From a virus (lineage: Duplodnaviria > Heunggongvirae > Uroviricota > Caudoviricetes), in IMG/VR virus record IMGVR_UViG_2778261009_000008, positions 1 through 51,038 of that record: a DNA stretch of 51,038 nt; one strand, given 5' to 3'. Below, piece after piece: positions 1,422 through 22,798 of this stretch; within the stretch, counting starts at the first letter, position 1; every line of letters starts with the position of its first letter. Position numbers and translations under genes: made by a program. The notes under the pieces were generated by a model that worked only from the letters and a program-made list of their open reading frames with translations, was not told where the DNA came from and searched no databases.

Positions 1422-3893
1422 TTAAAAATCAGCCTGACTCGGGATCAGTTTTTGCCAGATGGCTGAAACGTATTTTGCCTGGTAACGCGCATCGTGCAGC
1501 GCGTTATGGCGTTCACCTTCGAATGGAATAGTCGTTCTTGCGTCGAAATCCATCACCAGTCCCAGAGCAACCATCGTTCTTACATCGCGATCATTGGTGT
1601 AACGCCACGGGCAGGGGATCCCCTGCCGTTCATATGAACGGCGTAAAATCACGTTGTCGAAAGTTGCACCGTTACCCCAGACCTGAACAAAAAATTCACC
1701 GGAGTTTTCGTCGATAAATTCCCGGAATTGCAGCAGTGCATCATCCAACGGGATTTCATCGGTCAGAATGGCGGATTGTGCTTCGCGTGACTGTTTCAGC
1801 CACCACTTAATGGTGTCCCGATCGATGACCCCGCCTGCGGTTTCCAGATCGATAGTTTTGCTGAATTCTGGCCCCATCTCTCCGGTTGCCGGATCAAAAA
1901 ACTTACCGGCTATAGCGTTTATTGGCGCATCAGGATTTTTTCCCATTGTTTCAAGGTTAATCATCAGATGGTGCCACAACCTGCTGGTGGATGTGGTTTC
2001 ATGATGACCGTTCACTTTAATTAAGGGATTTGCTGTTTCGCCAGTTTTATTATCGCTGGCGTGATACTGATCGCTGACAGTGTTCTCCTTGTGCAGATGT
2101 TCAGTGCCTTCCATTTCCTCCGGATCATTTTCCTGAGCTTCAGCCTGATTCTCTTCATCGAATGTTTCCTGGTAGGTTGCGTTCCCCATCACCGCACCAC
2201 AGTCAGGACAGTTGCCGCCACCGGTCTGACCGCATGCGGTGCAAACTTTTTCCAGTTCCTGTTGCACTGCTGGTTCTGGTTGTTGTTCTTCTGGCCCGTT
2301 TTGTTGCGTATCCGGGCTGTTTTGTTCCGCTTCTGGCTCATTTTGTTTCACGTTGGGCTGATTCTGGTCCTCAGCGTCGCGACTCTGGATCCCTTTCACC
2401 CATTTCGGATCATCCGGGTCGCTAATCCCTTCAACAAATTCACCACGTGATGCAGCAAGCAATTTATCGGCGTCAGGCTGGCTGATATTGGCTGCCTGCA
2501 TCATTTTGTTTACTTCGTCAGCGGTAACTTTTACCGGCTCTGGTTGTTCGGAATCTTCAGTGCTATCCACATTTTGCGGTAAGCCCGTGTATGTGCCATT
2601 TTTTCGGGCAAAATATTCTTCTTTTGAGATTTCGGTACCGCCGGCAGCCAGCGCCCTGTCCAGACCAGAAAGTTTGTTTGCCCTGCCGTATTTTTCCCCG
2701 CCCTTATCGGTAAAGACGAAATAAAATGGTCCTTCACGCTCTACAGATGGTTCAGCTTCCACCAGGATTTCATTTTTTTGAGTATCGGATTCTGCCGTCT
2801 CCACTGGAGCAGTTTGTGCTGCTGGTGACTGGAGAGCATCAGCAGAGCTCTGGTCTGTTTCTTCATGTTCAAACACGCCCTTTGTCGTCAGGTATTCGCT
2901 GATATATTTGTTCAGTGCAACGGGATCTTTGTGAATATCGATCGGACGTTCGCGAACAAGGCCAAAAATAGTCTGATGGTCATAGGCAAGTGCTTCGGGC
3001 TGTTTGCGCATTGATGCTGAGATACGCTTCCAGTCTTCGCGATCCTTGTCGATAACCTCATTTGTCGCCCAGCGATGGATGGTACCGTCAATGTTTCCTG
3101 CATCCACATCACCGGGCCAGAGGGCGCAGGCCAGTTCATTGTCGAGTGTTTTCCATGTCTGTTTGTATTCGCGGCGAACGGCAACAGTGACAGCCCCGGT
3201 TTTTTCAGCAGCGTTTTCAGTGTTCTGTTGGTTTACTCTGGAACGGGCGATATCAACGACAGATATGTATTTCCCGGTTTCCTTGCGTTCACTTTCGCGA
3301 CGTTTTTTCCAGATGCGCATCTCTGCCTGAATTTCGGGCCATTTAGCAGCAGGTTTACATTTATGCTTAACCCACCCGATGGCATGCAGCTTAAGCTCCG
3401 GATACATGGCGTTAACTTCTGGCATCTTCATCAACGCTTCAACGATATGGCCGTCGAATGTTGCCATGTCTTCCTGCAACAATTCCTGAGCGCTAATCAC
3501 CATATCAACAGTGATGTTTTCACATGCGTCGAACTTAACCATGACGGCGTTCTGTACTTCAGGGGCCAGATTGTCAAAAGTGACGTTCATCGGTTCGGAT
3601 TCGGGTTCGACCGGGACAAAGGACGCAGACTCCTCATCCCAGCGGTTTTCCTGCATATATTCGGTATCCCAGGAATCGAGGGCAGGGCGGGGTATACCGG
3701 GTTTATCCTCGCAGACAATAAATTTATAAGCGCAGTCCTGAGCTGCCGGGAATTGCTCCAGAAATTGCCAGTGAAATTTTGCGCGTGCGCGACGCTCATC
3801 ACCGGCTTCAATGGCAGTGGCCACCGCAACAGCGCTATCTTCTTCTATGGCCTGTTCGTCAGGAATAGCAGCGCAAATAAAGATTTTATTCAT
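1422..3893 (-). CDS. Early-left exonuclease (exodeoxyribonuclease VIII-like; C-terminal DnaQ/DEDDh-type 3'-5' exonuclease domain)
   Basis: 823 aa ORF; C-terminal motifs (…[12 protein letters not shown]…, …[13 protein letters not shown]…) resemble DEDDh exonucleases; central CxxC…CxxC zinc-ribbon-like motif (CTACG…CPDCG) and an acidic/Q-rich low-complexity linker; position equals the recombination gene slot of lambdoid phages. Confidence 0.75.
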
Positions 3894-3988
3894 TGTGTTT
3901 TAACCTCATTACAGATTTCAGGGTGAACGAATCCCTGCCATTGCTGGCATTTTTAATCCGTTGGTATGGCGTTAATATGGCTGGCGGG

Positions 3989-4177
3989 TTATCCAGCCGG
4001 TGTTTCGTTATTCAGGTACAGCGATACTTTTTTTACCGGTAGGCATTCACCAGAAATTTTTTGCTCGTCTCTTGCCTGGAGGCAGGATTCTTTACTGGCA
4101 TAAATTCCGGTAATCACATTCTGTGATTCACCCGTTATAAGAAAAACCGTCATCACCAGTGCAAATGCTGAAGTCAT
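3989..4177 (-). CDS. Hypothetical small protein with N-terminal hydrophobic helix
   Basis: 62 aa ORF in the early-left region between exonuclease and repressor; N-terminal hydrophobic segment; no recognisable family. Confidence 0.3.
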   Translation of the reverse strand: MTSAFALVMTVFLITGESQNVITGIYASKESCLQARDEQKISGECLPVKKVSLYLNNETPAG

Positions 4178-4362
4178 TGACGTTCTCCGAAAATACCAAG
4201 TTTAATAAGGGCAATTCGGGAAAGAATGGAATTATCATTGAGCAGATAAGGCTCATATTTCCGCATATTAATGGCATCCTCAGTAAACGCTTTATTACTG
4301 AGCAGAACACCAATATCAAAACAACCTTCAGACGTATTAACGTTTGGTAATAACGTTTCCAT
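4174..4362 (-). CDS. Hypothetical small early-left protein
   Basis: 62 aa ORF abutting the previous one (kil/sieB-like position); composition AT-rich; weak support. Confidence 0.3.
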   Translation of the reverse strand: METLLPNVNTSEGCFDIGVLLSNKAFTEDAINMRKYEPYLLNDNSILSRIALIKLGIFGERQ

Positions 4363-4843
4363 TATCGCGTCCTCAACAATGAATTTTGTGATGCAGCGCC
4401 TGGTGCCTCCAGGTGACGTTAACCAGTTAACAATTAACGTCGGGTTAGTTGATGCTCGTTACGCCAGTAAAAGACCGCCTTACTGCTTTAACTGTTCCGC
4501 GTGCGCATAGCCGCATTCACAGCATCACAAAATTCACTTTAAAAAGGGCGGATATTCATTTCCGCCGAATCACCAGAAAAGTGATAACAGAGGTTGTTGT
4601 GGCTGGGGTGTCACTTAAGCGTATGGTCAACCTGACAACCCGGTGTCCTCAACGGGGGAAGGAATAACCCCGCCATACTTACCGCCGCGCCATTTCGCGG
4701 ATTGCCACAACCGGAAGCGCACGGTCGAAGAAATCTAACCTTATATGCAAAGGAATCTCGCCGTGCGCTTTCGTGTTATGCCCTGACTTTTCAGGGTAAA
4801 TTAACCTGTGGAAACCTGTTTTTACTGGCGCTAATCAGTTAGC

Positions 4844-4987
4844 GTTTCTGGCTAACCAGCGATGCGCGCCAGCTTCGGTTTTAAACGTTTTACTTTTGGT
4901 ATACGTCATCGCGGTAAACGTGCCGTCTTGGTTGGGGAATACTCCGCACACCAGAGATTCGTTGTTGCCAAGCTCGATAGTATCCAT
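4844..4987 (-). CDS. Hypothetical small protein (47 aa), first gene of the leftward early operon
   Basis: ORF below the 60-aa cutoff of the track, read by hand (MDTIELGNNESLVCGVFPNQDGTFTAMTYTKSKTFKTEAGAHRWLARNAN); lies downstream of candidate operator palindromes. Confidence 0.25.
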
Positions 4988-5172
4988 GTTGACCCCATTT
5001 ACCCTTAACGCCGGGTAGCGGAACTAAAAACCTGCTGCGCTGTTATACAAAGTGTTCCCGCCGTCATGTTCATACGCCTCGGGCTGGCTACTTAACCCCT
5101 GACCACTGCCGGGTAACTCGAGGTATTGCCCTGCATTCTGTGGGGCGGAGTGGGTTGGTATGAAAGGAAGTA

Positions 5173-5209
5173 TACCCACGGGTATCCAAAAAGTAAATAC
5201 CCATGGGTA
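5173..5209. promoter_or_regulatory. Pair of 12-bp palindromes (TACCCACGGGTA / TACCCATGGGTA), candidate left operator sites
   Basis: Two near-identical palindromes 25 bp apart, the second perfect, located just beyond the repressor gene 3' end and upstream of the leftward early genes. Confidence 0.35.
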
Positions 5210-5254
5210 ACTTTTTTTTCAGGCGTCTTAACTGGTGACTGGTTGTTTGGTGAG

Positions 5255-5716
5255 TTATGATGCGTTTTGTGCTTTCTTTTTACGGATTTCTTCGTAGATC
5301 ATATTGTAATACTGTTTTTTCTCTTCAAGAGTTTTTAATAAGTTATCCGCTTCACTTTCTGGCAGCTCGTCTAAGAGATCTAAAAAAATACGTTGTCGTG
5401 GCGTTAGAACCCTTGTTTCATAATTGGAGGCTGTGTTCGTTGATGATGAAACGATACCATCCATCCATCCTCGGGGTAACCCAAAGGACTCTTCGATAAT
5501 CTCCACCATATCATCAGCGATCCGTTTTTTTCCCTTTTTCCCCTCTGGGTACAACATTCTTGATACATAAGAAGGCTCGCGACCGATCTTTCTGGCTACG
5601 TTAACCGCTTTACCATCGCATTTCTCATCACGAATTTTGATGAGCTGCTGTCGTCTAAATTCATATTTGTCCATAGGTAAATAATAGATGTGATTACCGT
5701 AAGGTAAACAACCCAA
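5255..5716 (-). CDS. Prophage repressor (RacR-like)
   Basis: 153 aa ORF transcribed divergently from a Cro-like gene; resembles Rac-prophage-type repressors by recollection; predicted TTG start is doubtful, an internal Met (MDKYEF…) may be the real start. Confidence 0.7.
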   Translation of the reverse strand: MGCLPYGNHIYYLPMDKYEFRRQQLIKIRDEKCDGKAVNVARKIGREPSYVSRMLYPEGKKGKKRIADDMVEIIEESFGLPRGWMDGIVSSSTNTASNYETRVLTPRQRIFLDLLDELPESEADNLLKTLEEKKQYYNMIYEEIRKKKAQNAS

Positions 5717-5774
5717 AGGTATTGACTTTTGTTTACCTATAGGTATTCTTTGCTGTGTTTACTAAGGAGTAGCT
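5660..5774. promoter_or_regulatory. Divergent promoter/operator region of the immunity switch
   Basis: Intergenic region between the divergent repressor and Cro-like genes; inverted repeats ATAGGTAAA…TTTACCTAT and a TTGACT hexamer; SD AGGAG precedes the rightward gene. Confidence 0.45.
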
Positions 5775-6056
5775 ATGGAAGAATTAAGAATATTTCTCAA
5801 TTCTCTTTCGTCAGATGAACAGCGTATGTTTGCATGCGAGTGTGGTACCAGCATCGGTTATCTAAGAAAGGCATTGAGTAAAGGCCAAGTGTTAGGGGCA
5901 TCGTTATGTGTCCTTATTGAGCGAGCCAGTAATGGTGAAGTTACACGTCAGCAACTAAGGCCTTTTGATTGGATGAATATTTGGCCTGAGCTGGAAGATA
6001 CCAAAACGTTAACACAACCACTTTCTAGGAGCTTGATTCATGAAAATCAAGCATGA
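5775..6056 (+). CDS. Cro/YdaS-like HTH transcriptional regulator
   Basis: 93 aa ORF with good SD, divergent from the repressor; HTH-like segment (…GTSIGYLRKALSKGQ…). Confidence 0.7.
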   Translation: MEELRIFLNSLSSDEQRMFACECGTSIGYLRKALSKGQVLGASLCVLIERASNGEVTRQQLRPFDWMNIWPELEDTKTLTQPLSRSLIHENQA

Positions 6057-6465
6057 GCACATCCGCATGGCGATCAATGCCTGGGCCTATCCGGACGGTG
6101 AGAAAGTTCCTGCAGCTGAAATAGCCCGGACTTATTTCGAACTGGGGATGACATTCCCTGAACTGTACGACGACAGCCATCCGGAAGCCCTGGCCCGTAA
6201 TACACAGAAAATTTTCCGTTGGCTGGATAAAGACACCCCTGATGCTGTTGAAAAAATGCAGGCTCTGTTACCGGCGATCGAAAAGGCGATGCCGCCTTTG
6301 CTGGTGGCCCGTATGCGCAGCCACAGTTCTGAATATTACCGTGAGATCGTCGAACGGAGGGATCGGCTGGTGAAGGATGTCGATGATTTTGTTGCGTCAG
6401 CGGTTGTTTTGTATGACCAGATGAATCGCGGCGGCCCGGCAGGGAATGCTGTGGTGATGCACTAA
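6040..6465 (+). CDS. YdaT-like protein (CII-position regulator)
   Basis: 141 aa ORF starting MKIKHEHI…, overlapping the Cro-like stop; resembles YdaT-family proteins of Rac-like prophages. Confidence 0.65.
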   Translation: MKIKHEHIRMAINAWAYPDGEKVPAAEIARTYFELGMTFPELYDDSHPEALARNTQKIFRWLDKDTPDAVEKMQALLPAIEKAMPPLLVARMRSHSSEYYREIVERRDRLVKDVDDFVASAVVLYDQMNRGGPAGNAVVMH

Positions 6466-6487
6466 AAGCACGGTGTTCGGGGGGGTT

Positions 6488-7456
6488 ATGAGCAGCAAGC
6501 TTCATGGTCTTGTCTGGGAAGGGTGCGCCTTCACCGGCATGATCTTATCCAGGGTGGCGGTTATGGCCCGTCTTGCAGACTACAGCAATGACGAGGGCGT
6601 GTCATGGCCTGCCATTGAAACTATCCGGCGTCAGATCGGTGCAAGAAGTGAATCCACCGTTAAATCTGCTATTGCAGAACTGGCGAAAGAGGGCTGGCTG
6701 ACGAAGGAAGAGCGTAAGGTCGGTGGGCGTAACGTAAGCAATATCTATCGGCTTAATGTGGAAAAACTCGAAGCAGCTGCAACTGCGGCGCGTGAGGCAT
6801 ATAAACCGAAAAGAAAAATTAGCCCGGCAAAAAATGACCCGTTAACAGTTAACCCGTCAAATATTGCCCCCTCAACGGTTGACCCGTCAAATGTTGATGG
6901 ATCAACGGTTGATAAAAAACTGCGTATTAGGGGGGCGATGATTGACCCCGATCCGTCAGTATTAAAACCTGATCCGTCAGATAAAAGATCTTCTTGTCCG
7001 GACGTTTCACTGCCGGACGAAAAACGATCATCACCAGTTGAGCGATTTCTGGAGAAACACCCAGATGCGCATACCTGGAATGTACCGAAGCGACAGTGGG
7101 GTACCCGTGAGGATGTCGCCTGTGCGCAGTGGATTTGGGGACGGGTTGTGGCGTTGTATGAACAGGCCGCCAGTGATGATGGTGAGGTGTCACGCCCCAG
7201 AGAACCTAACTGGACGACCTGGGCGAATGATGTGCGCATGATGCGTATGCTGGATGGACGTAGTCACCGGCAGATTTGTGAAATGTTTGGGCGTGTCCAG
7301 CGGGATTCGTTCTGGGTAAAAAACATCATGAGTCCGGCAAAACTCAGGGAAAAATGGGATGAACTGGTTATCCGCCTGGGGCGTTCGCCCGCGCAGCGTT
7401 GCGTAAATCACATTTCTGAACCGGACACTGAAATACCGCCGGGATTCAGGGGGTGA
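6488..7456 (+). CDS. Replication initiation protein (lambda O-like)
   Basis: About 322 aa; N-terminal winged-helix-like domain, central repeat-encoding linker containing DNA iterons, C-terminal domain; followed by a DnaC-like gene. Confidence 0.75.
   Translation: MSSKLHGLVWEGCAFTGMILSRVAVMARLADYSNDEGVSWPAIETIRRQIGARSESTVKSAIAELAKEGWLTKEERKVGGRNVSNIYRLNVEKLEAAATAAREAYKPKRKISPAKNDPLTVNPSNIAPSTVDPSNVDGSTVDKKLRIRGAMIDPDPSVLKPDPSDKRSSCPDVSLPDEKRSSPVERFLEKHPDAHTWNVPKRQWGTREDVACAQWIWGRVVALYEQAASDDGEVSRPREPNWTTWANDVRMMRMLDGRSHRQICEMFGRVQRDSFWVKNIMSPAKLREKWDELVIRLGRSPAQRCVNHISEPDTEIPPGFRG
6836..6995. repeat. Iteron-like direct repeats inside the O-like gene followed by an A/T-rich tract (candidate replication origin)
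   Basis: CCCGTCAAAT(A/G)TTG x2, TCAACGGTTGA x2, CCCGTTAACAGTTAA, then GATAAAAAACTGCGTATTA and GATCCGTCAG x2; mirrors the lambda arrangement of ori within O. Confidence 0.5.
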
Positions 7457-15407: not shown

Positions 15408-15767
15408 ATGCTCATAGATTTGGTTTTACCTTACCCGCCAACGGTGAACACCTACTGGCGTCGTCGTGGCAGCACATATTTTATCTCGGAGGAGGGAAAG
15501 CGCTATCGCCGTGCTGTGGCGCTTATTGTTAACCAGCAGCGGCTGAAATTAAGCCTGTCCGGAAGGCTGGTAATCAGGATTATTGCAGAGCCACCGGATA
15601 AGCGCCGCCGTGACCTGGACAATATTCTGAAAGCGCCGCTGGATGCGCTTACGCATGCGGGGTTGTTAATGGACGATGAGCAGTTTGATGAAATCAATAT
15701 TGTGCGTGGCCTGCCTGTTCCTGGCGGGCGGCTGGGGATAAAAATCACAGAACTGGAGTGCGCATGA
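15408..15767 (+). CDS. rusA: Holliday junction resolvase RusA
   Basis: 119 aa; aligns with E. coli RusA including the catalytic block RRRDLDN…DAL…G…DD. Confidence 0.85.
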   Translation: MLIDLVLPYPPTVNTYWRRRGSTYFISEEGKRYRRAVALIVNQQRLKLSLSGRLVIRIIAEPPDKRRRDLDNILKAPLDALTHAGLLMDDEQFDEINIVRGLPVPGGRLGIKITELECA

Positions 15768-16447
15768 ATAACCAGTATTTACAGTTTGTTCGTGAGCAAC
15801 TCATGATTGCCACTGCGGATCTCAGTGGGGCGACAAAAGGCCAGCTGGAAGCCTGGCAGGAGAATGCCCTGTTCGATACAGGGCGTTACAGACGCAAAAA
15901 AATTCGTTATCGCGATGAGGTAACCGGAAAAATGATCACGCGGGATAATCCACCGATCCCGGGTAAACAATCACTGGCGAAAGGCTCATCAATTGCGCTG
16001 GTCAGTCCGGTTGAGTTTGCAACATCATCGTGGCGGCGTGCCGTTCTGGAACTGGAAGAACATCAGAAGGCGTGGTTACTGTGGTGCTACAGTGGAAATG
16101 TTTGCTGGGAAGATCAGGTCACTATAACACAATGGGTATGGGGTGAGTTTAAAGCTCAGGCTGGTACCAGAAAAATTGCAGGGAAAACGCTGGATCGTCT
16201 GAAGAAACTGATTTGGCTGGCGGCACAGGATGTGAAGAGTGAGCTGGCAGGGCGTGAGACCTATGAACATCAGGAGTTAGCGGTGTTCATAGGAGTTGCT
16301 AAATCTACATGGACAAAAACACACAGGCCTCACTGGTTGGCTATGCGGGGTAGTGCAGAGATGCTGGACAGGGATGCTCTTATTTCAGTAATGCGGGTAC
16401 GTTCACGGCAAAAGTCGCTTAATTTAGAACCATATCTTGCAAAATAG
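15758..16447 (+). CDS. Q-like late antiterminator (putative)
   Basis: 229 aa ORF directly after rusA, followed by a TATAAT hexamer and two intrinsic terminators; assignment rests on position, not on recognised similarity. Confidence 0.5.
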   Translation: MRMNNQYLQFVREQLMIATADLSGATKGQLEAWQENALFDTGRYRRKKIRYRDEVTGKMITRDNPPIPGKQSLAKGSSIALVSPVEFATSSWRRAVLELEEHQKAWLLWCYSGNVCWEDQVTITQWVWGEFKAQAGTRKIAGKTLDRLKKLIWLAAQDVKSELAGRETYEHQELAVFIGVAKSTWTKTHRPHWLAMRGSAEMLDRDALISVMRVRSRQKSLNLEPYLAK

Positions 16448-17237: not shown

Positions 17238-18296
17238 ATGCTTAATACTGTAAAAATATCCAGTTGTGAGTTAATCAACGCTGACTGCCTGGAATTTATC
17301 CGGTCGTTACCCGAAAATTCTGTTGATCTGATAGTCACGGACCCGCCGTACTTTAAAGTGAAGCCTGAGGGCTGGGATAACCAGTGGAAGGGCGACGATG
17401 ATTACCTGAAGTGGCTGGACCAGTGTCTTGCGCAGTTCTGGCGGGTGCTGAAACCTGCCGGAAGTCTTTACCTGTTCTGTGGCCATCGCCTGGCATCTGA
17501 TATCGAAATCATGATGCGTGAACACTTCAGTGTGCTGAACCATATTATCTGGGCAAAGCCGTCCGGACGCTGGAACGGGTGCAACAAGGAAAGCCTGAGG
17601 GCGTATTTCCCCGCCACAGAGCGCATTCTGTTCGCGGAACATTATCAGGGGCCGTATCGCCCGAAAGATGCCGGGTATGAGGCGAAGGGCAGGGCACTGA
17701 AACAGCATGTGATGGCCCCGCTGATTTCTTACTTTCGTGATGCGCGTGCTGCCCTGGGGATAACGGCAAAACAGATAGTGGATGCCACAGGAAAGAAAAA
17801 CATGGTGTCGCACTGGTTCAGTGCCAGCCAGTGGCAGTTACCGGACGAAAGCGATTATCTGAAATTACAGGCGCTGTTTGCCCGGGTGGCAGAAGAGAAG
17901 CATCAGCGCGGAGAACTGGAAAAGCCACATCACCAACTGGTCAGCACATACAGTGAACTGAACCGGCAGTATACGGAACTGCAGAGTGAATATAAGCATC
18001 TGCGGCGGTATTTCGGTGTGACGGTGCGGGTGCCGTACACCGATGTGTGGACGCATAAACCGGTGCAGTACTATCCCGGGAAACATCCGTGCGAAAAACC
18101 GGCAGAAATGCTGCAGCAGATAATCAGTGCGAGCAGTCGTCCGGGTGACCTAGTTGCAGATTTCTTCATGGGGTCGGGTTCGACAGTCAAAGCAGCGATG
18201 GTGTTGGGGCGTCGTGCTACAGGCGTTGAGCTGGAGACTGAACGTTTTGAGCAGACGGTCAGGGAAGTTCAGGATTTAGCCAGCCAGAACGGATGA
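17238..18296 (+). CDS. DNA methyltransferase (N6-adenine/N4-cytosine class, DPPY motif), orphan
   Basis: 352 aa; catalytic motif IVTDPPYF; no adjacent restriction endonuclease gene visible. Confidence 0.85.
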   Translation: MLNTVKISSCELINADCLEFIRSLPENSVDLIVTDPPYFKVKPEGWDNQWKGDDDYLKWLDQCLAQFWRVLKPAGSLYLFCGHRLASDIEIMMREHFSVLNHIIWAKPSGRWNGCNKESLRAYFPATERILFAEHYQGPYRPKDAGYEAKGRALKQHVMAPLISYFRDARAALGITAKQIVDATGKKNMVSHWFSASQWQLPDESDYLKLQALFARVAEEKHQRGELEKPHHQLVSTYSELNRQYTELQSEYKHLRRYFGVTVRVPYTDVWTHKPVQYYPGKHPCEKPAEMLQQIISASSRPGDLVADFFMGSGSTVKAAMVLGRRATGVELETERFEQTVREVQDLASQNG

Positions 18297-18336: not shown

Positions 18337-18412
18337 GGCCCTTTAGCTCAGTGGTGAGAGCGAGCGACTCATAATCGCCAGGTCGCTGGTTCAAATCCAG
18401 CAAGGGCCACCA
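18337..18412 (+). tRNA. tRNA with anticodon CAT (Met, or Ile2 if lysidine-modified)
   Basis: Hand-folded cloverleaf: acceptor GGCCCTT/AAGGGCC, D-arm GCTC…GAGC, anticodon loop CTCATAA, T-arm GCTGG-TTCAAAT-CCAGC, encoded CCA. Confidence 0.85.
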
Positions 18413-18421
18413 TATCACATA

Positions 18422-18498
18422 CCGCCATTAGCTCATCGGGATAGAGCGCCAGCCTTCGGAGCTGGCTGCGCGGGGTTCGAGTCCTCGATGGCGGTCCA
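18422..18498 (+). tRNA. tRNA-Arg (anticodon TCG)
   Basis: Hand-folded cloverleaf: acceptor CCGCCAT/ATGGCGG, anticodon stem CCAGC/GCTGG with loop CTTCGGA (U33, G37), T-loop TTCGAGT, encoded CCA. Confidence 0.8.
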
Positions 18499-18776
18499 TT
18501 ATCTGCATCATGCGTTGTTAGCTCTGATGAGTGAATCATTGTCTTTTGAGCAACAGGCTATCATATAAGATAGTCTCAGATTTCCTTGTTTATTCTCGCC
18601 GGATGCTTCGTAGATATTTGCAGGCATCTGTATGCAGGGGTATTATTGCGGCATATATCATCCGGAAAAATAAAAACTACATGCTGATCCGGAGATGATA
18701 GTTACAAGTCCTCCCGGATCCCGCATATTTACTATATTTTATAGATAATTGTTCTTGTTAATATGGAGATGGATAA

Positions 18777-19205
18777 ATGTATTGCCGTGCTGTACCGGTT
18801 CTTGTTTTGATATTAGCCAGTCTGACAACTGGCTGCACAAAAGATGTATCGACAAATAATTATGATGCTTCGCTGCATCACTCAGATAAATTAATAAAGT
18901 CGCAAAATTTGAGCTTATCGGAACGTACCCCTGATGCCAGTGAAGAAATCCGGCAGTATGCCATTCAGGTCAGGGAAGCCATAGAAGAACAGTTAAAGGA
19001 TGCGGGTAAGTATTCAGGAAAAGAGTGTTCACTGAGAATGTATATGGCCCCGAATGGTCTTCTGCTACAGGTTAAAAGAGAAAGCGGTGATCCCGATTTA
19101 TGTCGTGAAGCGATGAATGCAGTAAAGAATGCTGATATACCATCACCACCGTCTTCAGGAGTATATAAAGCATTTAGAAATGGCGTGCTGGATTTTAAAC
19201 TCTGA
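18777..19205 (+). CDS. Lipoprotein with TolA C-terminal domain (domain III)-like fold
   Basis: 142 aa; signal peptide plus lipobox-like LTTGC; C-terminal about 90 aa align with E. coli TolA domain III (…YSGKECSLRMYMAPNGLLLQVKRESGDPDLCREAMNAVKNADIPSPPSSGVYKAFRNGVLDFK…). Confidence 0.7.
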   Translation: MYCRAVPVLVLILASLTTGCTKDVSTNNYDASLHHSDKLIKSQNLSLSERTPDASEEIRQYAIQVREAIEEQLKDAGKYSGKECSLRMYMAPNGLLLQVKRESGDPDLCREAMNAVKNADIPSPPSSGVYKAFRNGVLDFKL

Positions 19206-19261
19206 CTGGGGGAGAAGATTTTCTCCTGTCCAGATGATTTTGGGGTGCTGGAAAGATATTG

Positions 19262-20640
19262 TGCTGTGAAGTGTTAAATTCCTCACAATTCAGTAAGTTG
19301 ACAGTTGCCTGTCAGACTGGGCATTTGTTAAAAAAATTTCGCATGGTGAATCCCCCTGTGCGGAGGGGCGACTGGTGAACGGTATGATCTCTTTGATGAT
19401 CGTAAGCGAGAATACGCGGGTTTAGTGTCACCGGGCTGAACTCACCGGGAGGCACCCGGCACCATGCTCATGGTGATACAGAAATGCGGCTTCAGCCCCT
19501 CTCTGGAGGGGCTTTCTTATGGACAAAAAAGCCCGCGCTGGGAGACGCGGGCGGCAAGGAATAAACAATAAAACGTGAAGTAATATTTCAGCTGGCGAAT
19601 AATACCCCATAGTAATCACTCTGCGCAACTGCGCGGCCTTTTTCGAATTGCGGGCTGTAGTCTCCCTTCTGCCGGGTGGCCTGGTTGCAGATTTCTTCAT
19701 GGGGTAGGGTTCGGCAGTTAAAGCAGCGATGGCGCTGGGGCGTCGTGCTATAGGCGTTGAGCTGGATACCGGGCGTTTTGAACAGACTGCGCAGGCAATC
19801 AGGGATATATTTATCGGTAGCTGTTTGCAGAAGTAATCTCCCAAAATTCCATTTTTGGAATGCAGTGGTTGTTGCTGTAGTGTGGGCAAGTTCTGGAACT
19901 GGCTTCGTCCATTGCAGATGATTGTTAGCTGGATATCAGTTACCTCATGGAAATGTTAAATGACTCACAGTTCGGTTGATGGACTATTGTCTGATTGATG
20001 GAAGTCTTGTAAAAACGAGCCAGCATAGTGAATCCCCCTGTGCGGAGGGGCGTCTGACATGGTCTCCATAGCGATGGTCACAATACGCAGATTCAGTAGT
20101 CAGGCTGAATCTACCGGGAGGCACCCGGCACTATGCTGCTTATGGTGTATACACAGCGATCGGCCCCTCTCCTGAGGGGCTTTTTTTGTGCGGGAAAAGG
20201 CTGTGTTGTGAAATGTTAAATTCCTCACAATTCATGAGGTTGATGATTGTCTGATTGATGAGGAGTTTGTTAAAAAAAGCGGGCATGGTGAATCCCCCTG
20301 TGCGGAGGGGTGATATCGTATCATTTCCTGTGTGGTCGACTGATATCACGGACATTTGTTCACCGGGAGGCACCCGGCACCATGTAGTATACAGAGATTA
20401 GGCATACATCCAGGCTCCTCATTGCAGGAGCCTTTTTACATGCAAAAAAAACCGCTCCAGGGAAGAGCGGTTGGCAAGGAATAAATAACAAAACGTGAAG
20501 TAATTTATTCAGCGCCCTAATAATACCTTACAGTAATCACATTGCGCAACTGTATGTAAGGGCGTATTTCTTTTTTGCGGGCTGTTTTGTGTGACTTTTG
20601 TGTTTCCGGAGGTCAGCCCGTGCCTTCTCTGACTCAGAAC
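19262..20640. repeat. Triplicated non-coding module (conserved blocks A-B-C plus hairpin, three tandem paralogous copies)
   Basis: Block A (GAAATGTTAAATTCCTCACAATTCA) at about 19270/19949/20210; block B (GTGAATCCCCCTGTGCGGAGGGG) at 19347/20028/20287; block C (CACCGGGAGGCACCCGGCACCATG) at 19443/20112/20361; each followed by a GC hairpin (T-run clear only in copy 2); an about 80-bp block D at 19554 and 20473. Confidence 0.6.
19681..19835 (+). pseudogene. Duplicated 3' fragment of the DNA methyltransferase gene
   Basis: About 125 bp near-identical to 18156-18290 (the C-terminal 47 codons of the 17238-18296 gene) with a TCG to TAG change; no start or upstream gene body. Confidence 0.7.
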
Positions 20641-20662: not shown

Positions 20663-22651
20663 ATGGCATTTAAACACTACGATGTGGTCAGGGCGGCATC
20701 GCCGTCAGACCTTGCTGAACGACTGACACAAAAACTGAAGGAGGGGTGGCAGCCATTTGGCAGCCCTGTCGCCATCACGCCTTATACCCTGATGCAGGCT
20801 ATTGCGGCGGAAGGTGATGTCACCACGCCGGTGCTGGTTAAACCATCGGGTGACGGGGAGACGGCTATCAGCAAGACCGGTGAGCCTGAATATTATTATG
20901 TTGTCGCGCTGGCGGGTCAGTCAAATGGTATGTCTTTTGGAGAGGGAGTACCGTTACCTGATTCTTATGATCGCCCTGATCCGAGAATTAAGCAGCTTGC
21001 CCGTCGACGTACCGTTACGCCGCGAGGCGTTCCCTGCACCTATAACGATGTTATTCCGGCAGATCATTGTCTTCATGATGTGATGGATATGAGTGAAAAA
21101 AATCACCCCCGGGCAGACCTCAATAAAGGTCAGTATGGTTGTGTGGGTCAGGGACTGCATATTGCCAAAAAACTGTTACCGTTTATACCGGCGAATGCGG
21201 GCATTCTTCTGGTTCCATGCTGTCGTGGAGGCTCGGGAGTGACTACAGGTAATGAGGGAACATTTAACGCCTCTTCCGGGGCAAGCCCTGATTCTGCATT
21301 GTGGGGAGCTGATAAGCCGCTGTACCAGGATCTGTTAAGTCGCACGAAAGTCGCGCTGGCTAAAAATCCCGGAAATATCCTGCTGGCGGTAATCTGGATG
21401 CAGGGGGAGAGTGATCTGGCTTCAGGAAGCCAGAGTCATAATGCTCTTTTTACTGGCATGGTACAGAAATTCCGTGCTGACATCGCTGATATGTCAGGGC
21501 AGTGCGTGGGGGGCTCGGCACTGAGCGTTCCGTGGGTTTGTGGCGATACGACGCATTACTGGAAAGAAAAATATGCTGCGTCTTATGAAACTGTATACGG
21601 TGGATATAAAAATAAGGCAGCGCAGAATATTCACTTTGTCCCTTTCATGGTTGATGGAAGCGGGGTAAATGTGCAGACCAATAATCCGGCAGAAGATCCT
21701 GATATTGAAGGTATTGGCTACTCCGGTTCGAAGTGGCGAGACAGTTCTGTCAGCTGGACGTCAGGTGACAGGGCAAGCCATTTCGGTTCATGGGCGCGGC
21801 GTGGAATTATTTCAGATCGTCTTGCAACCGCAATTCTGACCCACGCAGGCAAATACCCGGCGTTTATCACCGGGCGGTCAGAAACGGTAGTTGCAGGAGA
21901 TGAACGGGAAAACGTTACATCCGGAGATTTCCCGTCACCTGTGGAGGATGCTGCGTTATCACAGGATGCACCTCAGAGAAGAACGGTTGTTGAGTATAAT
22001 TCAGCTGTTGAGAAAGACAGCCTCGGTGGTAACTGGGCAGCCCAGCACTGGAATGCCCGGGACGGTGTCGCCGAGTTTGTTAATGATGAAAGCAGACAGG
22101 TGCTGAAGATTAAGCAGCATGAGGGCAAACAGGGACCGTGGATGCTGTCAGCAGGAGTATCAGCTGAAGATGCCCGTGCTCTGTATGAAAATGGCGGTGA
22201 AATAAAACTTGAATTCAGGTTGCCGGATGGTACCCAGGTTGCAGATAACAAATACCTCTTTGGTGTTTACCTGCCAGTTTCCGGGTGGACTCAGGAAGGC
22301 AACAGCAGCAATATGATGGCCTCCTTTTTCACTCAGACAAAAGCCAGTAACCTGGATGTCATGTATCACGGTAAAACACAGCCTAATACAAAAATTGAGT
22401 CATTCGGTGCGGTTAATAACAACTGGCACACGCTTGTCTTTAAATATAAAGGAGGCGGCAATCACCAGGTTATTCCGGTACTTGACGGAGAAGAGAAAAC
22501 AGGTTTTGCACTGAAAGAAGGTCCGGTCACTTCTGCCTTTACGGTGGATAACATCACAGTGACAGGTATCAGCGCAAATCAGGGAAAATCTTATCCTGTC
22601 ATGTTCCGCAGTATCATGGTAAGCATTAACCAGGCAACCTCTTCATCATAA
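20663..22651 (+). CDS. Sialate O-acetylesterase, NanS-p-like (DUF1737 + SGNH esterase)
   Basis: 662 aa; N-terminus MAFKHYDVVRAAS… and esterase block YYVVALAGQSNGM; matches the prophage nanS-p gene that follows stxAB in Stx phages. Confidence 0.8.
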   Translation: MAFKHYDVVRAASPSDLAERLTQKLKEGWQPFGSPVAITPYTLMQAIAAEGDVTTPVLVKPSGDGETAISKTGEPEYYYVVALAGQSNGMSFGEGVPLPDSYDRPDPRIKQLARRRTVTPRGVPCTYNDVIPADHCLHDVMDMSEKNHPRADLNKGQYGCVGQGLHIAKKLLPFIPANAGILLVPCCRGGSGVTTGNEGTFNASSGASPDSALWGADKPLYQDLLSRTKVALAKNPGNILLAVIWMQGESDLASGSQSHNALFTGMVQKFRADIADMSGQCVGGSALSVPWVCGDTTHYWKEKYAASYETVYGGYKNKAAQNIHFVPFMVDGSGVNVQTNNPAEDPDIEGIGYSGSKWRDSSVSWTSGDRASHFGSWARRGIISDRLATAILTHAGKYPAFITGRSETVVAGDERENVTSGDFPSPVEDAALSQDAPQRRTVVEYNSAVEKDSLGGNWAAQHWNARDGVAEFVNDESRQVLKIKQHEGKQGPWMLSAGVSAEDARALYENGGEIKLEFRLPDGTQVADNKYLFGVYLPVSGWTQEGNSSNMMASFFTQTKASNLDVMYHGKTQPNTKIESFGAVNNNWHTLVFKYKGGGNHQVIPVLDGEEKTGFALKEGPVTSAFTVDNITVTGISANQGKSYPVMFRSIMVSINQATSSS

Positions 22652-22798
22652 AACAAAAAAAACGCCAGCGCAGAGGAGAACGGGAGGATAAGTTTGACGC
22701 TGGCGGAGGAGTATCCTCATGGAGAACGATATGTAACACATATCGCCTTTCTTTTATTGAAAAGTCATCGCCATTGTCAACCATAACGGTAAGAAACT

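Follow-up and report, generated by a model that had tools for sequence, protein, structure and literature searches.

We analysed a window of 51,038 nt (IMG/VR record IMGVR_UViG_2778261009_000008), a lambdoid Escherichia coli prophage in whose late-gene regulatory region a short piece of a DNA methyltransferase gene lies downstream of an intact gene of the same family. This piece is very probably a non-functional recombination scar, composed of the final 165 nt of a different methyltransferase allele, here designated MTase_B, that would have been stranded when two related E. coli prophages were joined at non-matching positions. The intact upstream gene is designated MTase_A or the resident gene, positions refer to the window unless stated otherwise, and labels beginning with L denote the loci and contigs compared; locus L001, on the chromosome of E. 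coli JNEC-KY203, matches the segment 16400-20700 of the window at 100% identity. An original prediction, made from the letters of the window, had taken the piece for a duplicated 3' fragment of the upstream gene carrying an amber codon.

The sequence from 19672 to 19869 was compared with the whole window by BLAST. Positions 19672-19787 aligned with 18141-18256 of MTase_A over 116 nt, on the same strand, with 13 mismatches and no gaps (103/116 identical, 88.8%, E=3.3e-39), and no other match within the 51 kb was better than E~1. The homologous stretch that had been placed at 19681-19835 is thus real, although the fragment extends from 19672 to 19836, and the alignment of the resident 3' end with it confirms homology without the near-identity ascribed to it, a term which 88.8% over 116 nt does not justify. 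Likewise, the match had been assigned to the last 47 codons of the gene, whereas at the DNA level it covers 39, codons 302-340 of MTase_A. The observations that TCG had become TAG and that a start and a gene body are lacking were both borne out, since the TAG at 19705-19707 aligns with a resident TCG and the sequence to the left of the fragment is the spacer that follows an STnc100 small RNA (sRNA). Read in the frame of the gene, the fragment gives PGGLVADFFMG, a stop, GSAVKAAMALGRRAIGVELDTGRFEQTAQAIRDIFIGSCLQK and a second stop; MTase_A ends in PGDLVADFFMGSGSTVKAAMVLGRRATGVELETERFEQTVREVQDLASQNG before its own stop codon.

Judged by its tail and 3' flank, which match MTase_B, unlike the resident gene, the fragment is the 3' end of this different allele, without being a copy of the gene upstream. 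Over the core of 116 nt it shares 107 positions (92.2%) with MTase_B, compared with the 88.8% for the resident gene. The distinction is much sharper over its last 15 codons and the 31 nt past the stop, both of which are unrelated to MTase_A at the DNA level: 46 of the 51 nt of the coding tail agree with MTase_B and 18 with the resident gene, and the corresponding figures for the 31 nt are 27 and 13. The C-terminal tail of MTase_B ends in ...DTGRFEQTAQEIRDVFSGSGLQK and that of the resident MTase_A in ...ETERFEQTVREVQDLASQNG, and a diagnostic block of the fragment, GATACCGGGCGTTTTGAACAGAC, is of the B type. On these figures, the proposal that a piece of the upstream gene was duplicated is not supported.

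An intact parent gene is available for comparison. The complete genome of strain SMBL (NZ_CP061914), retrieved by a DNA search with positions 1-420 of the draft contig L006, encodes a full-length MTase_B of 355 aa with an AraC-type gene 63 nt downstream, and the fragment is 91.5% identical to this gene over all 165 nt. Full-length MTase_B is also found, at 99.4-99.9% identity, in the IMG/VR contigs L014, where it again directly precedes the AraC gene, and L015, which ends just past it. A protein search with the tail of the fragment returned 18 matches, all of them short (36-93 aa), most labelled 'partial', and ending in the B-type tail, from which one could have concluded that no intact parent exists; this was ruled out, as the draft contigs break inside a longer gene that is intact in SMBL. 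These contigs start within MTase_B and continue into a 241-aa AraC-type helix-turn-helix gene, copies of STnc100 and nanS-p. An exact 25-mer from the tail occurs in 11 IMG/VR contigs and had 0 matches among the GTDB species-representative genomes, so that there is no evidence for the tail outside E. coli-type sequences; since no record of the INPHARED phage collection covers the tail, the sequenced phage isolates would be without MTase_B. MTase_A and MTase_B are themselves approximately 94% identical up to position 18256 of the resident gene and unrelated over the last 12-15 codons (18257-18296 against 5216-5264 of L012). The boundary between their modules hence falls inside the coding region, and the modules that follow differ, namely tRNA genes in one case and the AraC gene in the other.

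Both junctions could be resolved to the base. The two parental sequences have no more than CC in common at the left one, and the breakpoints of the right one no more than AT. The spacer that precedes the fragment is 98% identical to the sequence after STnc100 downstream of stx2B in Stx2 phages and in about 1,000 E. coli genomes, only up to 19673. Past the spacer the Stx2 phages run on into the region upstream of nanS-p, and the window follows MTase_B from 19672. On the right-hand side, window 19672-19869 is 90.9% identical to positions 5100-5297 of L012, the locus of strain SMBL, which represents the B-type parent. In this parental arrangement, the AraC-type gene starts some 38 nt beyond the segment equivalent to 19837-19861; the 1,289-bp deletion of the window takes it out entirely. 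From the deletion to nanS-p the window is again colinear with the B-type locus, at 95.8% and with STnc100 copies 2 and 3 included. The homology therefore switches within a few bases at each of the two junctions, with both parents identifiable, as in illegitimate joins, and the illegitimate recombination suspected in the original prediction is supported by these base-resolved junctions and by the presence of both parental arrangements in public genomes. The AraC-type regulator that was lost (L012 5328-6053) has 241 aa and the Pfam domains HTH_18/HTH_AraC, is kept in 79 of 88 related complete genomes, and may belong with the prophage AraC-like regulators of the Psr/PatE type known from enterohaemorrhagic E. 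coli (EHEC).

The left junction is not peculiar to the window. Truncated copies begin at nt 904 of MTase_B in nine IMG/VR contigs, in the RefSeq loci L002-L004 and L013 and in the draft contig L025, as do all 39 such copies among the matches listed, and a cassette of tRNA, TolA-like gene, STnc100 and spacer is located to the left of every truncated copy examined. The TolA-like gene, the spacer and the fragment are found together in 88 of 5,426 complete E. coli genomes (approximately 1.6%), nine of which share the AraC deletion of the window, with 99.6-100% identity to it; the identical arrangement is also present in one IMG/VR contig (L017). Among the carriers, JNEC-KY203 and S19-651 are of the window type and 2014C-4587 is of the AraC-bearing type, and there are also prophages with the TolA-like cassette and no fragment, for example in JNEC-KY176. 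Since the junction is common to the carriers, the truncated copies point to one founding event, and an artefact of assembly is practically excluded on the same ground. The comparison with related prophages, by which the ancestral arrangement had been proposed to be sought, thus yielded both parental arrangements and an AraC-bearing intermediate. In E. coli N51 (NZ_CM165887; L013, positions 1919-4318) the interval from Q to the tRNAs lacks a resident methyltransferase gene and the truncated MTase_B fragment is kept; here the Prokaryotic Genome Annotation Pipeline (PGAP) calls an internal 35-aa open reading frame (ORF; MALGRR...) a hypothetical protein (WP_021293244.1).

The distribution of the amber codon was followed in the same set of alleles. 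TCG is present in each intact allele examined, of either type (L005, L006, L007, L012, and the resident gene in both the window and L002), and TAG in every truncated copy examined (L001-L004, L013 and the nine IMG/VR contigs) except L025. Because all intact alleles lack the amber and the truncated copies other than L025 carry it, this comparison shows directly that it is derived. Two further changes, Asp to Gly or Val at codon 3 of the fragment and Thr to Ala at codon 15, are missing from all intact alleles of both types. The exceptional copy, L025 (positions 1425-1589; GCA_000647455.1, contig AQGP01000109), has the same junction and a B-type tail, no amber, and a 116-nt core identical to a resident-type methyltransferase allele. 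It is called as an ORF of 67 aa (P0009) with a GTG start in the spacer, the equivalent codon in the window being CGG, and it may represent either a survivor from before the amber or a copy in which gene conversion by the resident gene undid the mutation.

Several features were assessed that a functional beta-class N6/N4 methyltransferase would need, that is, the full domain, the DPPY motif, an intact FxGxG motif and a start-bearing ORF, and all of them are lacking in the fragment. With the amber read as Ser, it matches only positions 181-219 of the 221 in the Pfam PF01555 profile (E=4.9e-10), compared with positions 1-219 for both MTase_A and MTase_B. It begins at codon 302, without the catalytic DPPY region (motif IV), preceded by the STnc100 spacer and without a start codon at its 5' end, and the stop falls inside FxGxG (motif I), which reads F-M-G-stop-G. 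The resident MTase_A displays DPPY near the N-terminus (...VTDPPYF...) and FxGxG near the C-terminus, and is labelled 'DNA-methyltransferase' in the identical RefSeq locus. As expected of a pseudogene, the fragment is shorter than its intact homologue (SMBL, L014, L015) and bears a derived disabling mutation. Two terminator-like hairpins lie upstream of it on the + strand (19494-19513 and 19621-19636), and a consensus scan of the + strand between 19200 and 20700 found no promoter-like site. Since no start codon, catalytic motif or promoter was found, the fragment is most likely functionless. Compared codon by codon with intact MTase_B, it shows eight non-synonymous and five synonymous changes, and two intact alleles differ over the core by three and nine respectively; the tendency is that of relaxed constraint, on counts too small for a formal test. 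Two other candidates were rejected. Suppression of the amber by the phage tRNAs is ruled out, as the anticodons CAT and TCG cannot read UAG, and an ORF of 153 aa on the minus strand across the fragment (19428-19889) was judged spurious, since it overlaps STnc100 copy 1 with its terminator in antisense orientation and is unannotated in the identical RefSeq locus.

Based on these comparisons, we hypothesize the following series of events. One parent would have had the order Q, MTase_B, AraC-type regulator, two STnc100 copies, spacer and nanS-p, which is still found intact, and the other, Stx-phage-like, the order Q, MTase_A, tRNAs, cargo (with the TolA-like lipoprotein gene for stx), STnc100, spacer and nanS-p. 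A single illegitimate crossover between non-allelic points, from the end of the A-type spacer to nt 904 of MTase_B and with the dinucleotide CC as microhomology, would then have fused the two, with the left arm supplied by the second parent and the right arm by the first, and have left the 3' end of MTase_B stranded downstream of a complete MTase_A. This piece would later have acquired the amber in place of Ser, Gly or Val in place of Asp and Ala in place of Thr, and in the sub-lineage of the window a second event, the 1,289-bp deletion at an AT microhomology, would have removed the AraC gene. The two junctions, both parental arrangements and the common junction are directly visible in the genomes; the order and mechanism of the events, and the lack of function, we infer. 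Some observations weigh against this reading. The timing of the amber is not certain in view of L025, the fragment persists in 88 complete genomes with a frame that is otherwise open, and what we call intact MTase_B could itself have arisen from the hybrid, by homologous recombination of the resident gene with the fragment, so that the direction of change is not fully proven. Even then, the B tail must stem from some intact gene.

One alternative is a local duplication within this prophage, tandem or dispersed, that produced a second 3' end of the resident gene, which subsequently diverged. The 116-nt match to a gene only 1.4 kb upstream and on the same strand speaks for such an event, and the codons TTC, GCA and GCT at positions 8, 18 and 26 of the fragment do agree with the resident allele and differ from MTase_B. 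Nevertheless, a copy of the resident gene would hardly have a tail and a flank at chance-level identity to it and at 87-90% identity to MTase_B, nor a core closer to the latter and a block of the B type, and strain N51 possesses the fragment without any resident methyltransferase gene in that prophage; we thus consider this origin very improbable. An artefact, in which reads of two prophages with similar methyltransferase genes were mis-joined, was also weighed, since drafts do break inside this gene, which is repeated among co-resident prophages, and the contigs L006-L011 all start within it. With both junctions in nine complete genomes at 99.6-100% identity, under differing strain names and accession series, and the left junction in 88 complete genomes and nine IMG/VR contigs, the probability of such an artefact is negligible.

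A retained function would account for the identical junction in so many complete genomes, whether the fragment supplied cis signals, such as a promoter or leader for the AraC-type gene that follows it in the intermediate arrangement, encoded a 35-aa protein (ORF 19729-19836) or served as a homology handle for the exchange of cargo. In accordance with this, the fragment lies 63 nt upstream of the AraC-type gene in 79 of the 88 genomes, exactly as the 3' end of the intact gene does, PGAP calls the 35-aa ORF in N51, and the resident-type core of L025 is compatible with gene conversion. Promoter scans were, however, empty, both in the + strand region around the fragment of the window and in positions 4900-5500 of L012, where a promoter for the AraC gene was sought; any role towards that gene is gone in the window, from which it is deleted; non-synonymous changes exceed synonymous ones, four of them within the last 15 codons; and hitch-hiking in one successful prophage lineage would explain the persistence equally well. 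It is therefore very unlikely that the fragment has been kept for a function. As to the handle in particular, the 116 bp of homology might allow homologous recombination to excise or exchange the cassette of tRNA, TolA-like gene and STnc100, and might also undergo gene conversion with MTase_A, a suggestion to which we attach little credence. If it were true, a B-tailed methyltransferase would be regenerated upstream of the next module, as in SMBL, and the scar would be a working part of the turnover of cargo cassettes in the stx slot. A non-functional scar of illegitimate recombination remains the reading that we prefer.

Table. Features of the late region of the prophage around the methyltransferase fragment, in window coordinates.
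Feature	Position	Strand	Evidence or remark
RusA-like gene and antiterminator Q gene	15408-16447		upstream of methyltransferase gene
MTase_A, resident intact DNA methyltransferase gene, 352 aa	17238-18296	+	ORF; Pfam PF01555 N6_N4_Mtase, E=1.1e-42, residues 29-340
Segment of MTase_A homologous to the fragment, codons 302-340	18141-18256	+	BLAST
Two phage tRNA genes, CAT anticodon and Arg-TCG	18337-18498	+	ARAGORN, PGAP
TolA C-terminal-domain lipoprotein-like gene, 142 aa	18777-19205	+	Pfam PF06519 TolA, E=3.4e-22; PGAP name 'tolA'
STnc100 sRNA copy 1, with terminator, from left parent	19312-19524	+	Rfam RF02076, 172.3 bits, E=5.6e-40
Post-STnc100 spacer of left (A-type) parent	19525-19673	+	comparison with Stx2 phages
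Left junction, 2-bp microhomology 'CC', A-type spacer / MTase_B nt 904-905	19672-19673	+	three-way comparison of L005, window and L012
Truncated MTase_B pseudogene, last 54 codons and stop (nt 904-1068 of the 1,068-nt parent gene)	19672-19836	+	
Amber codon TAG, where all intact alleles have TCG (Ser)	19705-19707	+	inside FxGxG (F-M-G-S-G) S-adenosylmethionine-binding motif
25 nt past the MTase_B stop, as in parental arrangement	19837-19861	+	base-level comparison with L012
Right junction 19861/19862, 'AT' microhomology, 1,289-bp deletion relative to B-type parent (L012 5290-6578)	19860-19862	+	
STnc100 copy 2, from right (B-type) parent	19994-20189	+	Rfam, 120.8 bits
STnc100 copy 3, from right (B-type) parent	20254-20443	+	Rfam, 139 bits
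nanS-p-type gene for a SASA carbohydrate esterase, the conserved anchor on the right of the slot	20663-22651	+	Pfam DUF1737, SASA and DUF6645

The genes surrounding the fragment are listed in the table, and some of them deserve comment. The tRNA with the CAT anticodon (18337-18412, +) is assigned to Met by ARAGORN and to Ile by PGAP in the identical RefSeq locus; we presume that it is the tRNA of the ileZ type, modified with lysidine, of Stx-like phages. It is followed at 18511-18560 (+) by the decayed remnant of a third tRNA gene, the argO of Stx phages, whose first 13 nt equal those of the tRNA-Arg of an Stx2d phage exactly, with scattered similarity through the anticodon arm and the T-arm gone; neither ARAGORN nor Rfam calls a tRNA there. 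This remnant marks the left seam of the swap that brought in the TolA-like cargo. The TolA-like gene, present in at least 88 complete E. coli genomes, fills the slot that argO-stx2A-stx2B occupy in Stx2 phages, window 18525-19282 standing in place of positions 2322-3761 of the Stx2d phage L005. It is a matter of speculation that a phage-borne mimic of TolA domain III could hinder the entry of Tol-dependent colicins or filamentous phages. The nanS-p-type gene is labelled 'SASA family carbohydrate esterase' in RefSeq, and just 3' of it, at 22654-22749 (-), there is a weak, sub-threshold Rfam match to the EHEC sRNA Esr41 (29 bits, E=0.025, the gathering score being 102), which is probably not significant; Esr41 has been reported near loci of the PasD/STnc100 type (bioRxiv 10.64898/2026.05.13.724894).

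The triplicated module that had been noted on either side of the fragment corresponds to three real copies of STnc100 (Rfam RF02076), which did not arise by triplication on the spot. Local triplication is ruled out by colinearity, which copy 1 shows with the A-type parent and the other two copies with the B-type parent, the latter at 95.7-95.8% to L012/L007; L007 contains a copy with the same score of 120.8 bits as copy 2. Three copies are present because the hybrid join would have added the two of the right parent to the single copy of the left one. Tandem arrays of STnc100 upstream of nanS-p vary in related prophages, with two copies after the AraC gene in L007 and four in L002/L004 (in L002, the array spans 3793-6744); L006 has four, one of them weak, in an array at 3054-4025 which an insertion sequence element adjoins. 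The repeated module of the window matches the STnc100/PasD family of prophage sRNAs at 121-172 bits. The related PasA/PasD sRNAs have been tied to esterase genes, and in Stx-type phages their flanks often contain STnc100 matches (Zhu, Shabalina and Storz, bioRxiv 10.64898/2026.05.13.724894). That preprint concerns the neighbours of the fragment; a search of its text found no mention of methyltransferase, methylase or nanS, and it holds no discussion of STnc100 tandem arrays.

The fragment is a routine pseudogene that has already been annotated. The RefSeq annotation of the same sequence covers it (AC0JZ7_RS13720, NZ_AP045179.1), with the PGAP note 'DNA methyltransferase; internal stop; incomplete; partial in the middle of a contig; missing N-terminus', and is silent on its allele of origin and history, which are all that is added here. 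The slot in which it resides is that of the cargo of Stx phages, in the order Q, methylase, tRNAs, stx2AB, STnc100 and nanS-p. With one of these, the Stx2d phage Stx2_112808 (LC567830), the left arm of the window is colinear at 93-95% in two stretches, one beginning upstream of the methylase and including the second tRNA, the other beginning shortly before STnc100 and lasting until the spacer ends. The window differs in having the TolA-like gene for argO-stx2AB and in a spacer that leads into the remnant of MTase_B instead of the region upstream of nanS-p. The two junctions, spacer/MTase_B nt 904 and 19861/19862, are thus markers of one prophage lineage with a TolA-like gene in the Shiga-toxin slot, and show base by base how cargo modules and STnc100 copies reshuffle there.

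When lambdoid phages undergo illegitimate recombination, truncated genes at the seams between modules are a textbook outcome, and such scars, to be expected in mosaic lambdoid prophages, carry little weight alone. In the classical model, reportedly that of Hendrix and colleagues, illegitimate recombination between co-linear lambdoid genomes is followed by selection. As in other lambdoid mosaics, the two related late regions considered here meet at non-homologous points that share only 2 bp of microhomology, the seam bears a truncated gene and the modules are swapped as blocks; the natural boundary between MTase_A and MTase_B likewise falls inside the 3' end of the gene, the resident gene and L012 diverging after 18256. 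Nothing essential sets the window apart from this model; here both parents and the AraC-bearing intermediate survive in public genomes, and the events can be resolved to the base.

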